A stretch of DNA of 64,000 nucleotides, taken from a virus. The position numbers and the translations under genes were made by a program. The notes beneath the pieces were generated by a model. It searched no databases. It saw only the letters and a program-made list of their open reading frames with translations, and had not been told where the DNA came from. How positions within the stretch are numbered: the first letter of the stretch is position 1; every line of letters begins with the position of its first letter. Location: positions 1-64,000 of IMG/VR virus record IMGVR_UViG_3300031707_000005. One strand, 5' to 3'. Positions 10,205 to 59,842 of this stretch are shown here, piece after piece.

Positions 10205-11914
10205 TCAGGGAGCCGGAGGTTGGTAACGACCACCAACGGACAAAGGACTACCTCCGCCACAACTTCCTGACCAAGCAATAAGTTCAGAGCCTGTCCAGGC
10301 AGTAGCAGACGAATCAACAAGCGTTGAGGGTGGAGCGGAAGTGTCAGTAAGCATTAAATCTGTAACGCGGTCATAAAACGAAACGGTAGTTATACCAGGG
10401 CATGATCCTGTGGACTTAAGAAAGAAAATACGACGTCCATCATCAGCATTCCTACTTGGAACAAAACTTGGGACGCCAGAAGGAACTGGATTAGCGGAAA
10501 ATGTATCGGTAGAAACAGTGTATTTCAGTGCGTCTTTAGAGAAACCACCCCATATATCGATGTTACCAGAGTCATCAATGAAAGCATTCGTATATCCGGT
10601 AGTCGGAAGTGATGAATTGATATTCTTACATCCGGAGAGCGAACAAGAGGCATCAGTCCACGAACGAGCAACCGGGTCGAACACGGAACCATCTGCCAAA
10701 TAACCAGTCAAATCTTGACCACCAAAAACGAAGAGCTTCTCCGTAGACGGAATTGATACCATCGCGAAATCAGATCGGGCCTGAGGAGCCGTACCGGATG
10801 TTGCCACGAAAGAAAAGAAATCGGTTCCTCCAGCACTAGCAAACTCAAGCGTACCGATCAGAGTTCCACTCGAATCAGTGAAACCGCCGAATACATAAAT
10901 ACCACCGGTATAAGTGGTTACAGCTTTATGTCCATATCGGGCGTTCTTGAGCGGAGACGACTTCCCCCAAGTGTCACGAGATGGATCGTATACGTAAACC
11001 GCACTAGTTGGATTAGAACTAGAGTCAAGACCACCAATGGTCGTGAAGAGTTTTTCAGAAAAAACAGCAGCATGTCCAGTTGTCGGAGGAGGCGCACCGA
11101 CAATAGAAAGCGACTGCCAAGCAGGTGTCGGAACGCCACTGATGCATGTTCGTCCATGAACGGCTTTATAACCACATGCACCGCAGTTCATCGGATCAGT
11201 ATTGAGATCCACACAAGACCCGCCGCAAACAGTATCGGTACACGAACCGACTGGACCGGAGTCAGACCCGGAGTCGATACCGGAGTCAGACCCGGGATTA
11301 CCGACGGAACCTGAGTCAACGATAGGATCAGAACCGGAGTCCACAGTCGAACCAAAACCTGAGTCAGTACCTGAATTCACACCAGAGTCATGACCATTCA
11401 TTTGACCATCAGAGTCGTTATTCACGTCAAAAGATGAGAGTTCGTCAACATTAACATTGGCATCGACACAGTTTCCAGCACTACACGTTTGAGTGTCTGT
11501 ACATTCAGAAATTTTTCCAATACATAGGTCATCGAAAAGAAGTGGCAAGAGGAGTGCCTCACCGGATCGATATCCGCTAATCGCTCGCACACGAGCAATT
11601 TCAATACCAGATGAATCGAGTGCAGTTGCCGTAATCTCATAAACACGAGTCACATCGTCATTTTGAGGAACGAGAGAAAACTGCAGAGGCCAACGATATT
11701 TATCCGAGTCGATGATCATCTTCCGATCAAAACGGTTCTCCCACTCCGTGTTCTTACCGTGACCAGAACGAACGCGAATTTCTACACTTTGTGTTTGTGT
11801 ACGAGTATCTAGTTGCGCATCGATTTGTACCATAACCTGAGTAGAAGAGGTGTTTTTAACGGAACATGCAATGATGAAAAATGAAAGAATAAATGTGAAT
11901 ACTTGAAAAATCAT
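10205..11914 (-). CDS. Myxobacterial-type lipoprotein with Cys-rich repeat and kelch propeller
   Basis: Signal peptide with lipobox IIAC; DSG-repeat linker; CGGSCVDLNTDPMNCGACG; kelch blades (TIGG..YDP..W, VFGG). Confidence 0.8.
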   Translation of the reverse strand: MIFQVFTFILSFFIIACSVKNTSSTQVMVQIDAQLDTRTQTQSVEIRVRSGHGKNTEWENRFDRKMIIDSDKYRWPLQFSLVPQNDDVTRVYEITATALDSSGIEIARVRAISGYRSGEALLLPLLFDDLCIGKISECTDTQTCSAGNCVDANVNVDELSSFDVNNDSDGQMNGHDSGVNSGTDSGFGSTVDSGSDPIVDSGSVGNPGSDSGIDSGSDSGPVGSCTDTVCGGSCVDLNTDPMNCGACGYKAVHGRTCISGVPTPAWQSLSIVGAPPPTTGHAAVFSEKLFTTIGGLDSSSNPTSAVYVYDPSRDTWGKSSPLKNARYGHKAVTTYTGGIYVFGGFTDSSGTLIGTLEFASAGGTDFFSFVATSGTAPQARSDFAMVSIPSTEKLFVFGGQDLTGYLADGSVFDPVARSWTDASCSLSGCKNINSSLPTTGYTNAFIDDSGNIDIWGGFSKDALKYTVSTDTFSANPVPSGVPSFVPSRNADDGRRIFFLKSTGSCPGITTVSFYDRVTDLMLTDTSAPPSTLVDSSATAWTGSELIAWSGSCGGGSPLSVGGRYQPPAP

Positions 11915-12549
11915 TCGGCCCTCGACAAAGTCATAATTTCCACACCAGTCCTACTATCCAGTGGAGAAGATTTACTGACGCCACCAGAAGATGCAGCGAT
12001 CGCAACCACGACGCCGGTTACAACAACTGCTCCAATTCCAGTCCAAAACCACCATCGGGAAGTGATCGGTTTACCATCTTTAAAATTAATCGGTTCAGTA
12101 ATCGGTTCAGTTACATGCGATTGAGTTTTCCGTGCAGTCTCTTCTGGCGTCGGAACAACCGGCGTACTGGCTAAAACTGGTTGCTGTGTAACAACTGAAG
12201 ACTCACGTTCAGATTTAGCAGCTTCGAGTGCATGAATCCTACCTTCAACTTCCATGCGGTTATCGGATTCTGGAACTTGAGATAGGTATGCTCGGAACGC
12301 CCAAAGGGCTTTATCATCATGACGCAAACGGTCATGAGCAAGACCAAGGTTATAAAATAGTGTGGGGCGTCCAGAAAGGTCGTACGCTTCTTGCCAGCGT
12401 GAGAGTGCAGCGTCATACCTGCCGCCATCGAACGCTTCACGTCCAGCCTGAAACAGAGCCTTCGCCTCTGCGTCTCGAGTCCCGTCTGCGTGGACTGAAG
12501 AAGCAACCATGGTTAAAATGGCAAACAAAATGTACGGAATTTTTTCCAT
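11911..12549 (-). CDS. Exported TPR protein with C-terminal membrane anchor
   Basis: Signal peptide ..VHA; AKALFQAGREAFDGGRYDAAL..WQEAY..PTLFYNLG TPR; RWWFWTGIGAVVV transmembrane helix; ATGA overlap with the downstream gene. Confidence 0.8.
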   Translation of the reverse strand: MEKIPYILFAILTMVASSVHADGTRDAEAKALFQAGREAFDGGRYDAALSRWQEAYDLSGRPTLFYNLGLAHDRLRHDDKALWAFRAYLSQVPESDNRMEVEGRIHALEAAKSERESSVVTQQPVLASTPVVPTPEETARKTQSHVTEPITEPINFKDGKPITSRWWFWTGIGAVVVTGVVVAIAASSGGVSKSSPLDSRTGVEIMTLSRAE

Positions 12550-13226: not shown

Positions 13227-13496
13227 ATGTTCCCGAAATTCCAAAAGAAAGCTCCATCGGAAAAACCGACAGAACAGGCCAGCGAAGAAGACTACGAGTT
13301 ATTCCATACACTGTGTACCGTTTGGTCAGATTGTACGTACGCCCAACAGTATGCAGATGACCAGGACCGTAGTGTCGCACCACTTGCAGCTCGCGAAATA
13401 CGAAAAGCTATTGAAGAATCCATATATGCTGATATGGAAATAGGACTAGATCATATAGAATTACTCAGACGAATTGAATCATCTGAGCCCATCTAG
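13227..13496 (+). CDS. Hypothetical protein
   Basis: 89 aa acidic helical ORF, convergent with the release factor gene. Confidence 0.45.
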   Translation: MFPKFQKKAPSEKPTEQASEEDYELFHTLCTVWSDCTYAQQYADDQDRSVAPLAAREIRKAIEESIYADMEIGLDHIELLRRIESSEPI

Positions 13497-14160
13497 ATCA
13501 CCACGCAAAAACGCCTTTACGGTTATTTGACGTCCAGTCCGATGGTCGGTAACCTGATCTCGTTGTACGGCTATAGTGCGAATTTTATCGCCTCGCATAC
13601 CTGAACCTACCTGATCTTTTCGATCTTGAGCTCGACCGTCAAAAGCCGCCGACTTGATTCGCTCCTGAAGTCTGGACCGAAGAATTTGTAAAGCTTCTTC
13701 TTTATTTTGATGTTGCGAACGTTCTGATTCACAACGAACCATAAGACCAGTAGGTAAATATGTCGCCTGAACAGCCGACTCAGTTTTATTCCGGTGTTGT
13801 CCGCCCGCCCCGGAGCCTCTACAAGTCTTAATTTCCACGTCTCGCATATCGAGCCGCATCTGTTGTTCCGTGACTTCCGGAAGTACGGCAACAGTCACCG
13901 TGGACGTATGGATTCGACCCCGCTTTTCATTTGGGGGCTGGCGCTGCCAACGGTGGCCACCTGATTCTCGAGAAAAGAGCTGGGCAACGTCTTTACCGCT
14001 TGCACGGAAGACAAGGATGCCGGGGCGCTCATCTAAAATAGATAGGTCAAAGAAACCTCCGAGCTCCCATCCGGCAATAAACCGCGAATTGTTCTAGAAC
14101 CAGGGATTTGGCGTCGTCGCCACCCTCTGCGCCGCGTATCTCAACTATGACAGTAGACAT
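13479..14160 (-). CDS. Class I peptide chain release factor homolog (RF1-like, lacks domain 1), made by +1 programmed frameshift, 226 aa
   Basis: ORF1 14160-14047 MSTVIVEIRGAEGGDDAK...ARRFL* (SD AAGGAG); +1 frame from 14048 DLSILDERPG...ESGGHRWQRQPPNEKRGRIHTSTVTVAVLPE...GSGAGGQHRNKTESAV...ERSQHQNK. Confidence 0.9.
14046..14060 (-). promoter_or_regulatory. RF2(prfB)-type +1 ribosomal frameshift site
   Basis: Minus strand GGAGG TTT CTT TGA C: internal SD, 3-nt spacer, slippery CTT, TGA-C; compare E. coli prfB AGGGGG TAT CTT TGA C. Confidence 0.9.
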
Positions 14161-14186
14161 ATTTGACTCCTTCCTAACAATTATAC

Positions 14187-14224
14187 ATCTGGATAGTATT
14201 CATCTATGTTTATCCACTCCGATT
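14187..14224. repeat. Direct repeat copy 1 (38 bp)
   Basis: atctggatagtattcatctatgtttatccactccgatt; 36/38 identical to 14734-14771. Confidence 0.9.
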
Positions 14225-14733: not shown

Positions 14734-14771
14734 ATCTGGATGATATTCATCTATGTTTATCCACTCCGATT
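14734..14771. repeat. Direct repeat copy 2 (38 bp)
   Basis: atctggatgatattcatctatgtttatccactccgatt. Confidence 0.9.
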
Positions 14772-19686: not shown

Positions 19687-22419
19687 TTAAATGTTAGAGA
19701 CGGAAGCAATCCGTCCCTTCCAAATCAAAAAGTTTTCTTCATTCGAAGAGAGATCTCGACCTAGCCTAAGTTTGCAGGCTGCAAGAAAAGATGTCTCACT
19801 TGGGAAGTTCAGCATCGGTCCAACTTTCATCGCAGTCTTGTAAAGGTGCGATGAATAATTGCGTCCATAGACGCGATCCTCAATCCATGAAAGGACTATC
19901 AAATCCTTTGGAGTCATTTTAGACGCCCGAACGGCTTTTATACCACCTTCATGAACGATTCGATACGCCTTTGAAGACCACTTATGAAGAAGTGGAACTT
20001 TAGGATATAACTTTTGAACTCTACGATCGAATTCATTAGAAGAACGAACAAAGTTATCATTACCTTCGAGAACACTTGGAGCAGGGGCGACAGTTCCAAC
20101 GTCTTCAGGTTTCGGCTCGAGCTTTTCACCGAGTTTATCAACCATGATTGATAAAAGTTGCTCTTGAGCTTTCTCAAGCATCTCATCAATCTTATCGGAT
20201 TTGGGTCCGGCAGGTTCAGATGGATCCTGGCCACCCTGATCCTGGCCACCCTGATCCTGGCCACCCTGATCCTGGCCACCCTGATCAAGACCTTGATCTT
20301 GATCGCCTTGATCAAAAAGTTGACTAAGATCCTGGTCCTGACCACCCTGATCTTGTTGAGCAGTGCGCGAAGAAGCTGCTTTCTTTATACCATCCGGTAA
20401 CGGAACGTCAGTACGAATTTTATAAACCTTCTCGGCTTCTTCAAGACGTGCAGCAATTTGCGTGCTATCCGGGTTCAGAATATTTCGACGAACAGCACCA
20501 CGGAAAGCAGGGTTTCTAACCCACGATGCTTCGATAAACTGATTCGAATTTGGTATAGACGCGTGTCCAATTAACTCAGCTACCGGGTGTTCAATACCCT
20601 GCTCGTCGGAAAATTTATTTCCTTTACCAACATAAAGAACACAAGGACAAAGTTGAGAATCGTCTGCAGCAACATTTCCGCAGCAAGTGCAGATAGTGAA
20701 AAGAGATATACAATTAGAAACTCCAACGCCGTTTACAACATATGAATGATCCACATCAACTTGAAGATCATATACAAATCCATTTAATTTCGAATTTTCA
20801 ATATTCTTGACGACAGAGTATACATGGCCTTTGGAAATCCAACGATCACAATTCCCGGAATTTCTTTTTTCGAAAGAGGTACCGGATTTTCTGATTTTCT
20901 CCGACGGAATGATGAAGGAACCAGAGTTTCTAATCCGAATCTGGTGATCAATACCAGAAGAATTCGGAAGCATCTTTGTCCCTTTCCTCGGGATCGAAGA
21001 TAATGTTCCGATGAGACCACAGCGGTTCAGAATAGTAAGAAACTGAGTTGCGAGACCCTTGTTACGAGTAGATATGAAAACTTGTTTCGTTCCACGTTTG
21101 GTCGAACTAATACACCCATCAGAGTCTATGACACCCGAAAGAAATGCAAGTTGATGTTTTTTCGGCCACAAAAGAACATCTCGTTCAAGGCATTTATCAA
21201 GAGCTCGTCGACCCGTAACATGACGATCAACCAAACCACGAACGGCTCTTGATGAACTAACGAGGTAGTTGGCTCCTCTACGCGTCGAACGCGAAACAGT
21301 TTTCGGAATAGAGCCGCCGACTGCTATTCTCATTTCCTTGGCAAGCCAAGAAATGCGATTTATTTCGGATTCAACGAAGTTCGTTATTGATGCGTGTTCT
21401 TCCGAAGCATCAAGGCAGAAACCAACACCAACGGTTGAGTCGTGTTTATTTTCGAATTTCCAACCATCTCCAACCCAAAGACCAAGGAGCCGAGCTTCCG
21501 ATTCCGTGCAAGAAGGGACCACTTCGCCCTTCAAAATCGGAGTAGCAACAATATCTCCAATTTCAAGGCATCCGGCTTCACGATATTCAAAACCGTAAGC
21601 TTCCGGACGAAGACGCTTCTTACCACGTCGTACATCATATTGCACGATATCGCGAGGGACAGCATAAAATTTATGATTATTTGTCGCATGGATCGAGGGA
21701 AGTCCTACCACCTTCACACGACGCATAGACCAACGGTTTTCCCTGATCTGAAGATTATCGACTCGACAGATATTTCCCTTTTGGGAAATGACTTCCATAT
21801 CAGGGCGAATCTCTTCAATAGGGAGAGTAGTCCCATCTGCCATTAGAACGGGCGTACCCGCTTCAAAGCAGCCCATGGACATCGCGTTAATATCACCGGA
21901 CACGATATCCGTAACAAGCTGACGGTGCTTACGATCAGTAGCAACCAGTATGTCAATATAAGCTGATTTCCCGAGGTCTCGGGCGATGGCGTCAACAATG
22001 AAGCCTTTTGATAAATCCGGAAGCTGGATATGCTCGAGATAGTTATGAGCTCCGATGAACGTTCGGTATGTAGAAAGAAGAAGCGAACGTTCCCAAGCAT
22101 CGCCGTTATTATTAATAATCTCGTGACATTCCGGTTTAATACGGAAATCAGGCCAACGAACATCAATCTGAACGCCCTGAGTCATACTGCGTCCGGTCTT
22201 CACACCCTTGGGGGTGTATGTATCGACGGACGCGACAATCGTGGCATGTGATAGAAGATATTGCTTCGGATCGCATTTACGAAGAACGGTCTTAGCCACA
22301 CGGTGTATATGATCACGTGGAACCGCACCTTCGTTTTGATTACGAAGAGTTTCCATCCAGTCATCAAATTCGATTCCAGGTCTCGAGACAATAGCTTTAG
22401 CTGTGCGTCTAAATGACAT
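19687..22419 (-). CDS. Prohead maturation protease with intein
   Basis: NNNGDAW, NYLEH, GFIVDA, AMSMG|C catalytic Ser motif, FIEASWVRNPAF; upstream of scaffold and capsid genes. Confidence 0.8.
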   Translation of the reverse strand: MSFRRTAKAIVSRPGIEFDDWMETLRNQNEGAVPRDHIHRVAKTVLRKCDPKQYLLSHATIVASVDTYTPKGVKTGRSMTQGVQIDVRWPDFRIKPECHEIINNNGDAWERSLLLSTYRTFIGAHNYLEHIQLPDLSKGFIVDAIARDLGKSAYIDILVATDRKHRQLVTDIVSGDINAMSMGCFEAGTPVLMADGTTLPIEEIRPDMEVISQKGNICRVDNLQIRENRWSMRRVKVVGLPSIHATNNHKFYAVPRDIVQYDVRRGKKRLRPEAYGFEYREAGCLEIGDIVATPILKGEVVPSCTESEARLLGLWVGDGWKFENKHDSTVGVGFCLDASEEHASITNFVESEINRISWLAKEMRIAVGGSIPKTVSRSTRRGANYLVSSSRAVRGLVDRHVTGRRALDKCLERDVLLWPKKHQLAFLSGVIDSDGCISSTKRGTKQVFISTRNKGLATQFLTILNRCGLIGTLSSIPRKGTKMLPNSSGIDHQIRIRNSGSFIIPSEKIRKSGTSFEKRNSGNCDRWISKGHVYSVVKNIENSKLNGFVYDLQVDVDHSYVVNGVGVSNCISLFTICTCCGNVAADDSQLCPCVLYVGKGNKFSDEQGIEHPVAELIGHASIPNSNQFIEASWVRNPAFRGAVRRNILNPDSTQIAARLEEAEKVYKIRTDVPLPDGIKKAASSRTAQQDQGGQDQDLSQLFDQGDQDQGLDQGGQDQGGQDQGGQDQGGQDPSEPAGPKSDKIDEMLEKAQEQLLSIMVDKLGEKLEPKPEDVGTVAPAPSVLEGNDNFVRSSNEFDRRVQKLYPKVPLLHKWSSKAYRIVHEGGIKAVRASKMTPKDLIVLSWIEDRVYGRNYSSHLYKTAMKVGPMLNFPSETSFLAACKLRLGRDLSSNEENFLIWKGRIASVSNI
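20223..20286. repeat. 15-bp coding tandem repeat x4 (DQGGQ)
   Basis: gatcctggccaccct x4. Confidence 0.9.
20713..21870 (-). mobile_element. Intein (386 aa) with LAGLIDADG endonuclease in the prohead protease
   Basis: Starts CFEAGTPVLMADG; block B ATNNHKF; LLGLWVGDG and FLSGVIDSDG; ends VYDLQVDVDHSYVVNGVGVSN|C. Confidence 0.92.
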
Positions 22420-55825: not shown

Positions 55826-58800
55826 TCAACTACAACCTGTCGTAGTTCCACATGAGGAACAAAGATAACAAGAACCATTACGTTGAGTTATGTTACCACA
55901 ACGAGCACATGGAGGACCGCCAAGGTTCTTACGCGGCGTCTTTATCGTAGCATCAGTAGAATGTAACGGAGGCGGCGGTATTGAAGGCGGCGATGAATGG
56001 TATTGATCCGATACTTCATCCTTCGCAATGCTTTCATTAACGTCGTTGTCCGACTCATCAGAACGATTAGAAAGACCGGAGTGTTCCCCATTATAATAAT
56101 GAACATCAAGAACTTTGAACATATAATCATATAAACTCTTAGCAAACCGAACTTTCTTGTTCGTTGTCATCCCAGCGGGTTCAAATCGGGTATCGATGAA
56201 ACTTGAAATAAGTTTCGGTAAAGGAATCCCGTATTGAATGGCAATAGAACAGAGCTGGGTGAAACCATCTATCAGACCAGATACAGTGCTACCGGGTTTC
56301 CCGAGTTTAAGAAAGATTTCACCCGGACGACCGTCAGGATACTCACTAACAATAAGATATCCCTTATATCCGTCAATTTCAAACTTATGCCGCCAACTCT
56401 TAACATCATTCGGCATTTTCTCACGACGAACAACAGGAACTTGAATTTCACGAACAACTTCTCTGATGTTCATGTCAACGGCTTTTAAGGCCGCTTGCAG
56501 TGAATCCTTGGAGTCCTTCGTCGTGAGAGGCTGAGACGCCTTACACTTATCACGATATAGAGCTATACACTTCAAACCGAGACGCCACGATTCTTCATAA
56601 ATCTTAGCAATCTCGTCAGAGGTAACGCTCTCAGGAAGATTAACAGTCTTGCTCATCGCACATGTAATAAGTGGCTGGATGGCAGCCATCATTTTGACAT
56701 GCGCCATAGGCGATAGATACCGCGCCGATGGACCGGCAGGCATCGCAGTGTCGAAAACATGAATATGCTCGTCCTTTAGACCGGGAGCTCCTTCTATCGT
56801 GTCATTAGATTCGACATGATTGCAAATCTCTGCAACTTCATCTGTCGAATATCCGAGATTCACCAGGGCCTCGCGAACACCGAAGTTGATGAGCTTCATT
56901 ACGCCGCCACCGACGAGCGACTTATAACTCACAAGTGAAAACGCCGGTTCGATACCAGTAGTGTTCATTCCCATCAGGAACGATATAGTTCCGAGTGGGG
57001 CCTGCAGTGTGGCTTGAGAGATATTATAGCCGTACTTTTCACCAAGAGAGATGGCTTCTTTCCAGACTTCAGCGGACAATGAAACCACGTCATCATTGAC
57101 CGGATCCTTCGGAAGGTGCCAACGCTCGATGATTTTTGCATCAGCTTCCTGATGCATTCGCATCACGCGAAGCATATCTTCACGGTTCTTCTCGAATTCA
57201 GAGAATGCGCCGACACGAGCAGCAAGCTTTGCTGATGTTAGATAAACAATTCCGGTCATGAGAGATGCCATGCGAGCGGCAACAGCACGACCCTCATCGG
57301 AATCATATCCATAACCGAGATTCATGACGAGCGCACCAAGATCACCATAGTTAGTGCCAATGGGACGAAGCTTTATTGAATTAGACCCGATTTCGTCAGT
57401 CGGATATGCAGCCTTCGCAACAATAGCCATCTGAGCGGTACTAAAGATTCTCGTGGCTTGAGTAAATCTCTCAGGAACAAATTTGCGGCCATCGAAAAAC
57501 TTCGTCAGGTTAATCGCACAGAGATTACAGGCTGTGTTGTCAACATGAAGGAATTCACTACAATTATGAGCAACAATCCCGTTTGCGATGAGCGAACTAG
57601 TTTCAGGCTCGGTAATGTCGTAAACGGGAACAATCTCACCATTGTTAATCACACGGACAACATCATCTGTCCATTTATCGCGGCCGTTATGATTAATTGA
57701 ATCAGGAATATCGGAGAATCGAGCTTGTTTCCTATCAGAAAGCAATCCGATTGATTTCATAAGATTTCTGAAAGTTTTAAGACTCTGGCCAGTGATAACA
57801 AGATCATTTGTCTTCTCTTTCGAGAAATACGTTCGAGTTTCGCCCGACACTGTCGTATATGAAAACGTCGGTTTATCGTTAGGACGACGATCTTTGTAAA
57901 GAGTGCTGTTAACACCAAGATTCAAAAGAAGATCCTGGACTCCGCGTAGAAGTTCAAGACTAGTAGAACTAAAACGAGCGTCAACATTCTTCTTCGGTTG
58001 AATATTGAAAGTCCCATCTGCAGAAAAAAGACCAGCAAGAAATGCAAGTTGTTCCTGAACTGTTGATCGAAAAACGGCATCCATGACTTTTTTAGTCGGA
58101 GCTTTAGACCCAGGTTCACAAGCCCAGACCAACATGGATTCCCAAATGGCTTTCCTGTGAATCCGAATATAATCCGGGCTTTCACCGACAGATCCATTTT
58201 GATATTTTTGAGAGAATGGGATGTCTTGATCACGGAAAAATGCAAGAATCTTATCCATTGCATCTTTGTCATCTTTACCAAAAACGAGCCCAACTTCGTG
58301 AGTATTTCTACAAGGAAGTGCTTTCAAGATCCATCCATCACCAACAATCCACCCAGCAATCTTGTGCCACATGAGATCAAGACCAGATGACTCCGTCGAG
58401 TATGCACCAACTCCGGCTTGCAAACAAAGAACACTATCTTCCGTCAGATCGGATGCCTCTACCCACCCATCAGTCGTCATAAGACGATGATCAGGGGTTA
58501 CCTTCAGTATTCTACCTCTTCTCGTATGAACTTCAACAACATTTTTCACACCAGTCGGAAAAACTGTGGCTGCTTTCAAAACAGGTCCATCTGGTGTTTG
58601 AACGAGAGTCAAAAATTTCGAAGAACAACCTGATGACTCGAATTCTGCACACAAATCTTCAATACGTACTAAGCCAAGCTCAGTGGCAATGCGAGTATCG
58701 GGATGGAAGCATGGATTTGAAGCACGAATCTTCCCATTCTTTGGGGTAGTGTGCCACTTGTTTATATTGTCGGAGAATTGAACGCCCGGGTCACCACAAC

Positions 58801-59842
58801 GCCACGCAGCATCGGCAACTTCTTTCCAAATTTCACGAGCTTTGTAGTTATGAACTACTTTTCCACTCTTACGCTCACGAGTTTGCCATGAACCGTCATC
58901 GAGCATGGTTTGCATAAACGCGTCAGGAACAGATACAGAGTGATTTGCGTTCTGATATGGAACTATTTTGTATGCACCATTCGGGTCGTCATACTCTGCA
59001 GAATAACCAATAGAAACAAGATCATGAGCAAGCTTCTCCGACCACGACTTGCAACGAATGAAACCGGGACGACCATCACGTGTTTCAAGAATGTCAGGAT
59101 GATCCATATCCATAACAACCATCTTCGCTGCGTTTCTCGTAGCACCACCCGATTTCATCGCACCAGCGTATGAATTATTCCCCTGCATCCAAGACATCGG
59201 ACCAGAAGTATACGAACCAGCAGAAATCTTTTCATAAGAAGAACGGAGATTTGATAAATTAGCACCGGAGCCGGATCCACCACGGAAAATGGTAAGCTCT
59301 GACGTCTGAAAACGCATAATGTCATCAAGAGAATCTTCAACACCAGAAATGAAACAAGCCGAAGCTGCTTGTTTACGACCTTCAACACCAAGGTTAAACC
59401 AAACCGGAGAATTAAATGCTCCGTATTGATGCAAAAGAGCATGAATAAGCTCTTCTTCAAATACTTGAGCATCAATTTCAGTATTGAAAAAGTTCTGTTC
59501 TTCCGCCCAATTTCGAATGGCACAACAAACACGAGTAAACATTTGCTTTACTGATGTTTCACGAACACCATTAACAACACGAAGATATTTATCTGCTACA
59601 ACATTTACGTTATTTTGAGTCCACCAAGCAGGAACCTCAATATTCTTTTGTTCGAAAACAATCTCACCTTTACCATTACGAATACAGGCATCAGCAGTCT
59701 TCCATTCAACTTGGTCAAACGGATGAGATCCTTCTGAGGTAAATACACGAGGCCAATGACCCGCATCGCGTGATATCAAGTCCTTAGTGGAGTGAGCCCT
59801 AAGGTTTACTACTGGTGCGGATATAGCCTCAGTGTTTGACAT
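55826..59842 (-). CDS. nrdJ: Class II (B12-dependent) ribonucleotide reductase with intein, C-terminal TSCPD-like domain and zinc ribbon
   Basis: FNSPVWFN, SACFI, SGGATRNAAKM, GDPGVQF, SNP|C..CSE, ACNL, APLGTISFLM..TGIEP, SKTVN, YRD; terminal CARCG..CYLCSSCGTTTGCS. Confidence 0.92.
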   Translation of the reverse strand: MSNTEAISAPVVNLRAHSTKDLISRDAGHWPRVFTSEGSHPFDQVEWKTADACIRNGKGEIVFEQKNIEVPAWWTQNNVNVVADKYLRVVNGVRETSVKQMFTRVCCAIRNWAEEQNFFNTEIDAQVFEEELIHALLHQYGAFNSPVWFNLGVEGRKQAASACFISGVEDSLDDIMRFQTSELTIFRGGSGSGANLSNLRSSYEKISAGSYTSGPMSWMQGNNSYAGAMKSGGATRNAAKMVVMDMDHPDILETRDGRPGFIRCKSWSEKLAHDLVSIGYSAEYDDPNGAYKIVPYQNANHSVSVPDAFMQTMLDDGSWQTRERKSGKVVHNYKAREIWKEVADAAWRCGDPGVQFSDNINKWHTTPKNGKIRASNPCFHPDTRIATELGLVRIEDLCAEFESSGCSSKFLTLVQTPDGPVLKAATVFPTGVKNVVEVHTRRGRILKVTPDHRLMTTDGWVEASDLTEDSVLCLQAGVGAYSTESSGLDLMWHKIAGWIVGDGWILKALPCRNTHEVGLVFGKDDKDAMDKILAFFRDQDIPFSQKYQNGSVGESPDYIRIHRKAIWESMLVWACEPGSKAPTKKVMDAVFRSTVQEQLAFLAGLFSADGTFNIQPKKNVDARFSSTSLELLRGVQDLLLNLGVNSTLYKDRRPNDKPTFSYTTVSGETRTYFSKEKTNDLVITGQSLKTFRNLMKSIGLLSDRKQARFSDIPDSINHNGRDKWTDDVVRVINNGEIVPVYDITEPETSSLIANGIVAHNCSEFLHVDNTACNLCAINLTKFFDGRKFVPERFTQATRIFSTAQMAIVAKAAYPTDEIGSNSIKLRPIGTNYGDLGALVMNLGYGYDSDEGRAVAARMASLMTGIVYLTSAKLAARVGAFSEFEKNREDMLRVMRMHQEADAKIIERWHLPKDPVNDDVVSLSAEVWKEAISLGEKYGYNISQATLQAPLGTISFLMGMNTTGIEPAFSLVSYKSLVGGGVMKLINFGVREALVNLGYSTDEVAEICNHVESNDTIEGAPGLKDEHIHVFDTAMPAGPSARYLSPMAHVKMMAAIQPLITCAMSKTVNLPESVTSDEIAKIYEESWRLGLKCIALYRDKCKASQPLTTKDSKDSLQAALKAVDMNIREVVREIQVPVVRREKMPNDVKSWRHKFEIDGYKGYLIVSEYPDGRPGEIFLKLGKPGSTVSGLIDGFTQLCSIAIQYGIPLPKLISSFIDTRFEPAGMTTNKKVRFAKSLYDYMFKVLDVHYYNGEHSGLSNRSDESDNDVNESIAKDEVSDQYHSSPPSIPPPPLHSTDATIKTPRKNLGGPPCARCGNITQRNGSCYLCSSCGTTTGCS
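57563..58711 (-). mobile_element. Intein (383 aa) with LAGLIDADG endonuclease at the RNR active site
   Basis: Starts CFHPDTRIAT; block B VTPDHRL; IAGWIVGDG and FLAGLFSADG; ends VYDITEPETSSLIANGIVAHN|C. Confidence 0.93.

Follow-up and report, generated by a model that had tools for sequence, protein, structure and literature searches.

Textbooks use the frameshift in prfB to show how a gene can sense its own product. In the family described here this device sits on a different release factor, in viruses and in thousands of variants, which raises the question of what it would sense there. The release-factor gene lies on the minus strand of the window, by which we mean the whole stretch of 64,000 nucleotides that was analysed and which comes from an IMG/VR virus record of 84.6 kb with an estimated completeness of 20%.

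The autoregulatory +1 frameshift of prfB takes place at the sequence SD-N3-CUU-UGA-C (PMC12421855; review PMC5009743). A survey of more than 12,000 bacterial genomes reported no programmed frameshift in prfA, in agreement with the original prediction that RF1 genes normally lack such a cassette, and TAG never occurred among 8,164 prfB motifs (PMC12421855). Papers on huge phages and on stop-codon-recoded phages list RF1 and RF2 genes and no frameshift (PMC7162821; bioRxiv 10.1101/2021.08.26.457843). These are phage-carried class-I factors like the one studied here; domain-1 loss, a frameshift and an in-frame stop go unmentioned in those reports, and, unlike in the recoded phages, the long genes of the phages tested here lack internal stops in the standard code. 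According to work cited in the review (PMC5009743), a giant virus (an amoeba virus) has a release-factor gene that needs both readthrough and a frameshift. As far as the cited account extends, that gene resembles ours in being a virus-encoded termination factor whose synthesis needs stop-codon recoding, and differs in that the virus infects eukaryotes, the factor is not a bacterial-type RF1, and the signals and the host translation are different. A published description of a frameshift-gated short phage release factor was not found in a search of the literature outside subscription journals.

The interrupted gene and its surroundings

The elements of the gene are collected in Table 1. At its 3' end ORF0 reads ...CGG AGG TTT CTT TGA C, and joining both frames by skipping the T of TGA gave a protein of 226 aa. 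The original prediction had named a 37-codon ORF with an SD sequence, its end in GGAGG-TTT-CTT-TGA-C and a 189-codon continuation in the +1 frame, each of which we confirmed on the minus strand. It had also listed GGDDA, ESGGHRWQR, GRIHTSTVTVAV, GGQ and the junction peptide FLDLSILDER, and all of these were read in the joined product, together with the full helix tip EGGDDA and the loop PPN. The +1 frame contains no ATG, GTG or TTG ahead of 13898, and a start at the GTG at 13898 comes too late, so that independent initiation would cost the codon-reading loop. As foreseen for standard gene callers, the public gene calls hold a GTG-started fragment of 139 aa and, separately, the 37-aa ORF, as two unnamed proteins. 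Rfam gave no matches at the release-factor gene, and RNA structure downstream of the gate was not significant (folding z -1.1). No full sigma-70 promoter was scored at the TATAAT upstream of the gene in a promoter scan, so that we regard this element as a -10 resemblance only.

Table 1. Elements of the release-factor gene, with positions in the window
Feature	Position	Strand	Remark
TATAAT	14185-14180	-	just 5' of the Shine-Dalgarno sequence
Shine-Dalgarno GGAAGGAG	14167..14174	-	6 nt 5' of the ATG; read directly
ATG of the release-factor gene	14160	-	opens ORF0
ORF0, ATG to CTT, 37 codons	14050..14160	-	start of RF domain 2
Helix-tip motif EGGDDA	14127-14110	-	within ORF0
Internal Shine-Dalgarno-like GGAGG	14056..14060	-	3 nt (TTT, 14055-14053) from the slip codon
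Shift site CTT TGA C	14046..14052	-	gate TGA = 14049-14047
+1-frame ORF, 189 codons	13482..14048	-	remaining domain 2, domain 3 with GGQ, domain 4
Codon-reading tripeptide PPN	13929..13937	-	position of RF1 PxT
GGQ	13797..13805	-	catalytic motif for peptidyl-tRNA hydrolysis
TGA, true stop codon	13479..13481	-	
Hairpin around the true stop TGA	13488-13463		terminator-like stem, 10 pairs, weak T tail

The original prediction had asked for a check for a one-base assembly error, and we ran it on independent contigs, on a diverged strain and on an RNA library. The stretch, or part of it, was detected in 23 public runs, nearly all of them sediment metagenomes. Contigs of 2-3 other DNA runs spanned the shift site with no indel. 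A strain of about 94% identity kept GGAGG-TTT-CTT-TGA-C, and the four bases directly after the cassette differed. A contig from a metatranscriptome library made from the sample of that strain covered 13930-14127 with the shift site unchanged; since an RNA library can contain DNA, this contig is a mere hint of transcription. The 20 strain differences caused 6 amino-acid changes in the joined reading versus 15 in frame 0 and 13 in frame +2, each read over the whole gene. The assembly-error reading is already refuted. One extra T does separate the two frames, and a basal relative reads GGT CTC GAA where gated forms read GGT CTT T GAC (a one-T difference), but this T is kept in all three kinds of sample, the same codon is interrupted in hundreds of independent assemblies and both halves are under purifying selection, which leaves a broken gene or a one-base assembly error with practically no probability.

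The window carries genes for a terminase, a portal protein, a clamp loader, a helicase, a ribonucleotide reductase, a ligase and an exonuclease, and the release-factor gene is a phage gene, of a large phage from a sediment community. The long ORFs of the window are open under the standard code and TGA terminates 32 of its 64 gene proxies. No tRNAs were found in the window or in the 64-84 kb part of the record.

Several features of the surroundings were observed in passing. Just upstream of the release-factor gene, a 154-aa ORF is bracketed by two 38-nt direct repeats (14187-14224 and 14734-14771, 95% identical) that occur nowhere else in the window. At the repeats, contigs of two other runs have 333 other letters followed by another repeat copy; therefore the cassette between the repeats varies among strains. 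Downstream, with one 191-aa ORF between, a 569-aa Kelch-repeat protein is encoded beside a 212-aa TPR protein with a signal-like N-terminus (10205-12549, minus strand), an unusual cargo for a phage. Farther away on the minus strand, a 910-aa ORF (19687-22419) has Hint, intein-splicing and LAGLIDADG domains, and the 1338-aa large subunit of ribonucleotide reductase (55826-59842) is much longer than its PHROG profile, and inteins are probable in both.

Identity and descent of the predicted factor

Pfam assigned two domains to the joined protein, RF-1 and, at profile positions 101-194 of 194, the C-terminal half of PCRF; the upstream ORF by itself gave no Pfam matches. The NCBIfam RF1 model matched over positions 105-333 of 347 only, a start that bears out the predicted RF1-like body without domain 1. 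Scores stayed below the cut-offs of the RF1 (PrfA) models (223 bits versus 400 for NF001859 and 218 versus 423 for TIGR00019), of the RF2 (PrfB) model (TIGR00020; 147 versus 370), of the PrfH model (TIGR03072; 89.2 versus 166.65) and of the ArfB model (NF006718; 38 versus 100). The ArfB-like build, a GGQ domain alone with a C-terminal tail, was not found either, domains 2 and 4 being present.

The best relative of solved structure was the RF1 of T. maritima (2fvo/1rq0; E 4e-51), and the alignment to it ran without a gap across the frame junction. Identity in the decoding region was 40% to bacterial RF1 versus 26% to RF2. The loop and its flanks, HRWQRQ-PPN-EKRGRIHTST, were as the original prediction described them: the flanks fit the RF1 pattern (HRVQRVPxTE..GR[IV]HTS) and not that of RF2 (HRLVR.SPF), and the tripeptide is neither the PxT of RF1 nor the SPF of RF2. 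The GGQ motif and the RF1-type third-base readers (Q of VQR, GR[IV]HTS) are present. Among 30 joined sequences, E7, R9, E12, G13 and G14 were invariant, as were G117, G119, G120 and Q121 of the GGQ region, and the RF1 decoding residues (helix tip, Q of WQR, P and E of PxTE, GR.xTST) were nearly so. Because of the RF1-like scores, the gapless alignment to T. maritima RF1 and the RF1-type decoding pattern, we identify the predicted product as an RF1 derivative without domain 1 and the last helix, in which PPN replaces PxT.

Bacterial RF1 is accordingly the closest relative by sequence, with the GGQ, the helix tip, the third-base reader Q and GRIHTST in common; the phage factor differs from it by the missing domain 1 (about 105 residues) and last C-terminal helix, by PPN, by scores below the RF1 HMM cut-offs and by its stop-codon gate. 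PrfH (RFH, paired with RtcB) is also a short class-I paralogue with GGQ and no domain 1, and the phage factor differs from it in keeping the RF1 decoding residues, in having no RtcB partner and in being phage-borne and recoded. With RF2 as the root, a tree placed the short phage factors in one clade beside bacterial RF1 (SH-aLRT 99), and RF1 together with the phage clade was split from RF2 (SH-aLRT 100). A gate is missing from the basal members of the phage clade and present in all 55 others. None of the 5 bacterial genomes searched had a prfH over the cut-off; PrfH is absent from the tree, so its exclusion rests on HMM scores. Of the phylogeny proposed at the outset, the comparison with RF1 and RF2 was thus made on a tree and yielded a distinct clade on the RF1 side, and PrfH and ArfB were judged by their HMM scores.

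Each of ten phage genomes carried a single RF-1-domain gene. JGI labels family fragments 'peptide chain release factor 1'. None of the cultured phages of the GenBank collection carried the family, the only carrier there being an uncultured 485-kb phage, and scans of genomes and metagenomes with the family alignment returned mostly ordinary bacterial RF1. A few copies were found in Myxococcota assemblies (P0072, P0298 and P0305: Minicystis rosea, Kofleriaceae and Polyangia), that of Minicystis rosea (P0072) on a 16-Mb contig of an NCBI record. The short form was present in 2 of 201 genomes of this phylum. These copies hint at hosts, or at prophages, for one subclade.

The gate across the family

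The original prediction proposed that SD-N3-CTT-TGA-C should be conserved at the same codon in homologs. Among IMG/VR relatives with an N-terminal match, 43 of 58 need a +1 shift at codon 37, and their shift sites are CTT-TGA (34), CTT-TAG or TTT-TAG (8) and CTT-TAA (1). The cassette is therefore at that codon in 34 of the 58, a shared position far beyond chance. These relatives are 40-64% identical, bar one 99%-identical twin contig, and many are phages of 100-480 kb. The relatives share 54-71% identity over the ORF0 segment, and in all of them it follows the ATG in frame. In the 38 distinct cassettes, C-T-T-T was invariant or nearly so, GGAGG stood exactly 3 nt 5' of CTT in 22 and C followed the gate stop in 29; other cassettes had weaker SD-like cores at 3-4 nt, and 6 of the 38 had no SD-like element.

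Thousands of relatives of 100-330 aa were found in a collection of 5.8 billion proteins, and the whole family comprises roughly 5,000-8,000 members. Most of these proteins are +1-frame calls with a false N-terminus, GG.F followed by D/E, S or N, and 170 of the 227 public protein calls with a readable junction show GG.F[D/E/S/N], the cassette as read in the +1 frame. When 384 relatives were pooled, the gate was TGA in 190, TAG in 84 and TAA in 7; it was absent in 13 and unreadable in 90. Thus 281 of the 294 readable genes are stop-gated, mostly by +1 shifts, with about 30% UAG and few UAA among the gates, and 13 are uninterrupted. Since about 4% of the relatives are uninterrupted, the gate is dispensable in some phages.

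Because the prfB anatomy (SD, 3-nt spacer, CUU, UGA, C) is present and conserved, we regard the predicted +1 frameshift as programmed; the slippery CUU, the in-frame stop, the +1 continuation and the SD at 3 nt are all those of the prfB-type cassette originally proposed. The likeness to prfB extends to the cis elements, the spacing and the following C, to the regulation of a class-I release factor and to the lack of downstream RNA structure. In contrast to prfB, the phage protein is of RF1 type and phage-borne, the site is at codon 37 in domain 2 and not at about codon 26 in domain 1, 30% of the gates in the family are UAG, and the protein sequence does not imply self-feedback. One relative with a CTT-TAG gate and a PPN loop (L058:3001-5669) has a further interruption: the reading ends near residue 104 and is taken up again in another frame about 2.1 kb farther downstream, as though an element had been inserted there.

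In one subclade the gate was found about 10 codons farther downstream. At this second site two members have SD-CTT-TGA-C, and ten members have an in-frame stop (nine TGA, one TAG) after which the ORF continues in the same frame. In three of those ten phages we examined RNR-family ORFs of 566-786 aa, which contained no internal stops. Stop-codon reassignment is therefore unlikely there: against an alternative genetic code, which was considered for the in-frame-stop relatives, these ORFs speak for the standard code in the three phages. The terminase of the window, used as a query, gave no match in the in-frame-stop phages. Two further relatives (L032:3001-3669 and L039:3001-3657) lack a frameshift and have a pair of in-frame TGAs spaced by eight codons (42/50 and 41/49), and the lengths of their flanking ORFs do not suggest a reassigned TGA. 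Since in-frame stops replace the shift in some relatives, the conserved property is the stop-codon gate: judged by these comparisons, selection keeps a stop codon in the way, and not the frameshift as such.

What the gate may sense

The ribosome would pause at the shift site when tRNA-Leu occupies the P site, paired with CUU, and UGA has entered the A site. The internal GGAGG would pair with the anti-SD sequence of 16S rRNA and push tRNA-Leu from CUU onto UUU, and after this slip reading would restart at GAC. Release at UGA and the slip would compete, the full-length yield going up if RF2 activity is slow and down if it is fast, so that the yield of the factor should follow the speed of host UGA termination inversely. 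The product would most likely need a stop codon for release and decode the first and third bases as RF1 does; its T-to-N change may alter how the second base is read. It would probably add termination capacity for the phage mRNAs, half of which end in UGA in the window. An indirect loop may be imagined, speculatively, in which the product takes over UAA and thereby frees RF2 for UGA. We infer in this way the slip, its dependence on RF2, and the activity and codon specificity of the product. Taken together, an RF1-descended factor of 226 aa, made through a programmed +1 frameshift in a yield that tracks slow UGA release and adding to termination capacity, is in our judgement a probable account of this gene.

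The monitoring of RF2 is argued by analogy with the prfB mechanism. From the known specificities, the combination of an RF1-like body with a gate codon of RF2 makes no direct feedback loop. With about 30% UAG gates, RF2 sensing cannot be the general rule of the family; the UGA gate of the original prediction is seen at this locus and in the 190 TGA-gated relatives, and does not describe the UAG gates, the few UAA gates and the in-frame stops. TAA, which is read by both host factors, is rare as a gate (7 of 281), and this fits selection for a slowly released stop. The best reading of the gate may thus be that it senses the termination capacity of the host, reporting slow release at a codon served by a single factor, which here would be RF2.

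It would be a different matter if the factor read its own gate stop, through PPN or through recognition of all three stops, for then its own abundance would shut off the frameshift in a true self-regulation as in prfB. Overproduction of release factors is toxic and prfB uses exactly such a loop (PMC12421855), and a factor that reads both TGA and TAG could tolerate their toggling: on the family tree there were no fewer than 42 changes of the gate codon and 41 of the loop residue. Variation in the family is also unusually high at the T of PxT, which discriminates the second base and may be T, N, H, G or S or be deleted; PPT, as in RF1, somewhat outnumbers PPN, and T and N often interchange. PPN was enriched among TGA gates in the raw counts (Fisher p 0.001 to 0.006), but this association between gate stop and loop residue found no support once phylogeny was controlled for: of 18 independent TGA/TAG contrasts located on supported branches, about 15 left the loop unchanged, 1.6 changed it as expected and 1.7 changed it in the opposite direction. 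Moreover, the commonest combination in the family is PPT with a TGA gate (101 rows), and a factor that accepted A or G at both the second and the third position would also hit UGG (Trp). Since gate codon and loop residue are uncoupled in the contrasts, self-recognition through the loop is not supported by the comparison, and comparative support is likewise absent for the idea that PPN would let the factor read its own UGA. We consider true self-regulation unlikely.

The free interchange of gate codons could also indicate that the shift is a fixed-efficiency attenuator, or a device for low expression, that carries no information on host release factors. Neither the loop nor the stop-codon usage of the genome is tracked by the gate codon. 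No clear link of gate stop or loop to stop usage emerged from 11 genomes, each of about 80 kb, TAG making up 0.12-0.41 of the genome stops in TAG-gated versus 0.16-0.33 in TGA-gated phages, and a small hint from flanking sequences that the gate stop follows stop usage was gone in this 11-genome test. Some members, moreover, lack the SD or the whole gate. However, a plain attenuator needs no stop in the A site, and yet the stop always begins with T, TAA is avoided, and where the frameshift has been replaced an in-frame stop is found at the same spot. An attenuator of this kind is decidedly improbable.

The missing domain 1, as in PrfH, the relaxed constraint in the loop and the presence of other rescue parts (tmRNA, SmpB) in huge phages (PMC7162821) would be compatible with a factor that, like PrfH or ArfB, rescues ribosomes independently of a stop codon when mRNA or rRNA is damaged in infection or host defence. 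The low scores with the PrfH and ArfB models (89 bits versus 167 and 38 versus 100) and the near invariance of the other decoding residues of RF1 speak against it. RtcB was not found in the 84.6-kb record, itself a fragment, and no neighbour gene was common to 61 family loci (the best candidate occurred in 9 of them). We hold a rescue function to be very unlikely.

The preferred reading, a gate on host termination capacity, can be taken further. The family may represent a third kind of bacterial-type class-I factor, a minimal RF1 derivative with a loosened second-base reader (T, N, H, G or deleted) that would recognize more codons than the two of RF1, in which the gate is whatever single-factor stop (UGA or UAG) is slowly released, so that the phage would measure the termination capacity of the cell and top it up; we offer this as a doubtful though consequential proposal. 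If it were true, the in-frame-stop forms would be readthrough-regulated release-factor genes, and in-frame UGA or UAG gates of that sort were called unknown in bacterial release-factor genes (PMC5009743). The swaps between UGA and UAG gates, together with the in-frame-stop replacements, amount to a natural experiment on what such gates sense, and they point to large phages that may read or adjust the termination capacity of their hosts. A minimal release factor with natural variation in the second-base reader is also useful to those who study how stop codons are recognized or who engineer the genetic code.

Public databases present this family of short phage release factors in split or truncated form, a systematic effect of gene callers. 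A gene of another kind, with the GGQ domain only, was observed in Pseudomonas syringae phages of the phiPsa374 group (KJ409772.2:2346-2597 and MT670417.1:2329-2532). Some annotations call it 'peptide chain release factor 1' with a second feature beside it, others give a pair of hypothetical proteins for a single match, and it may also be split or recoded.
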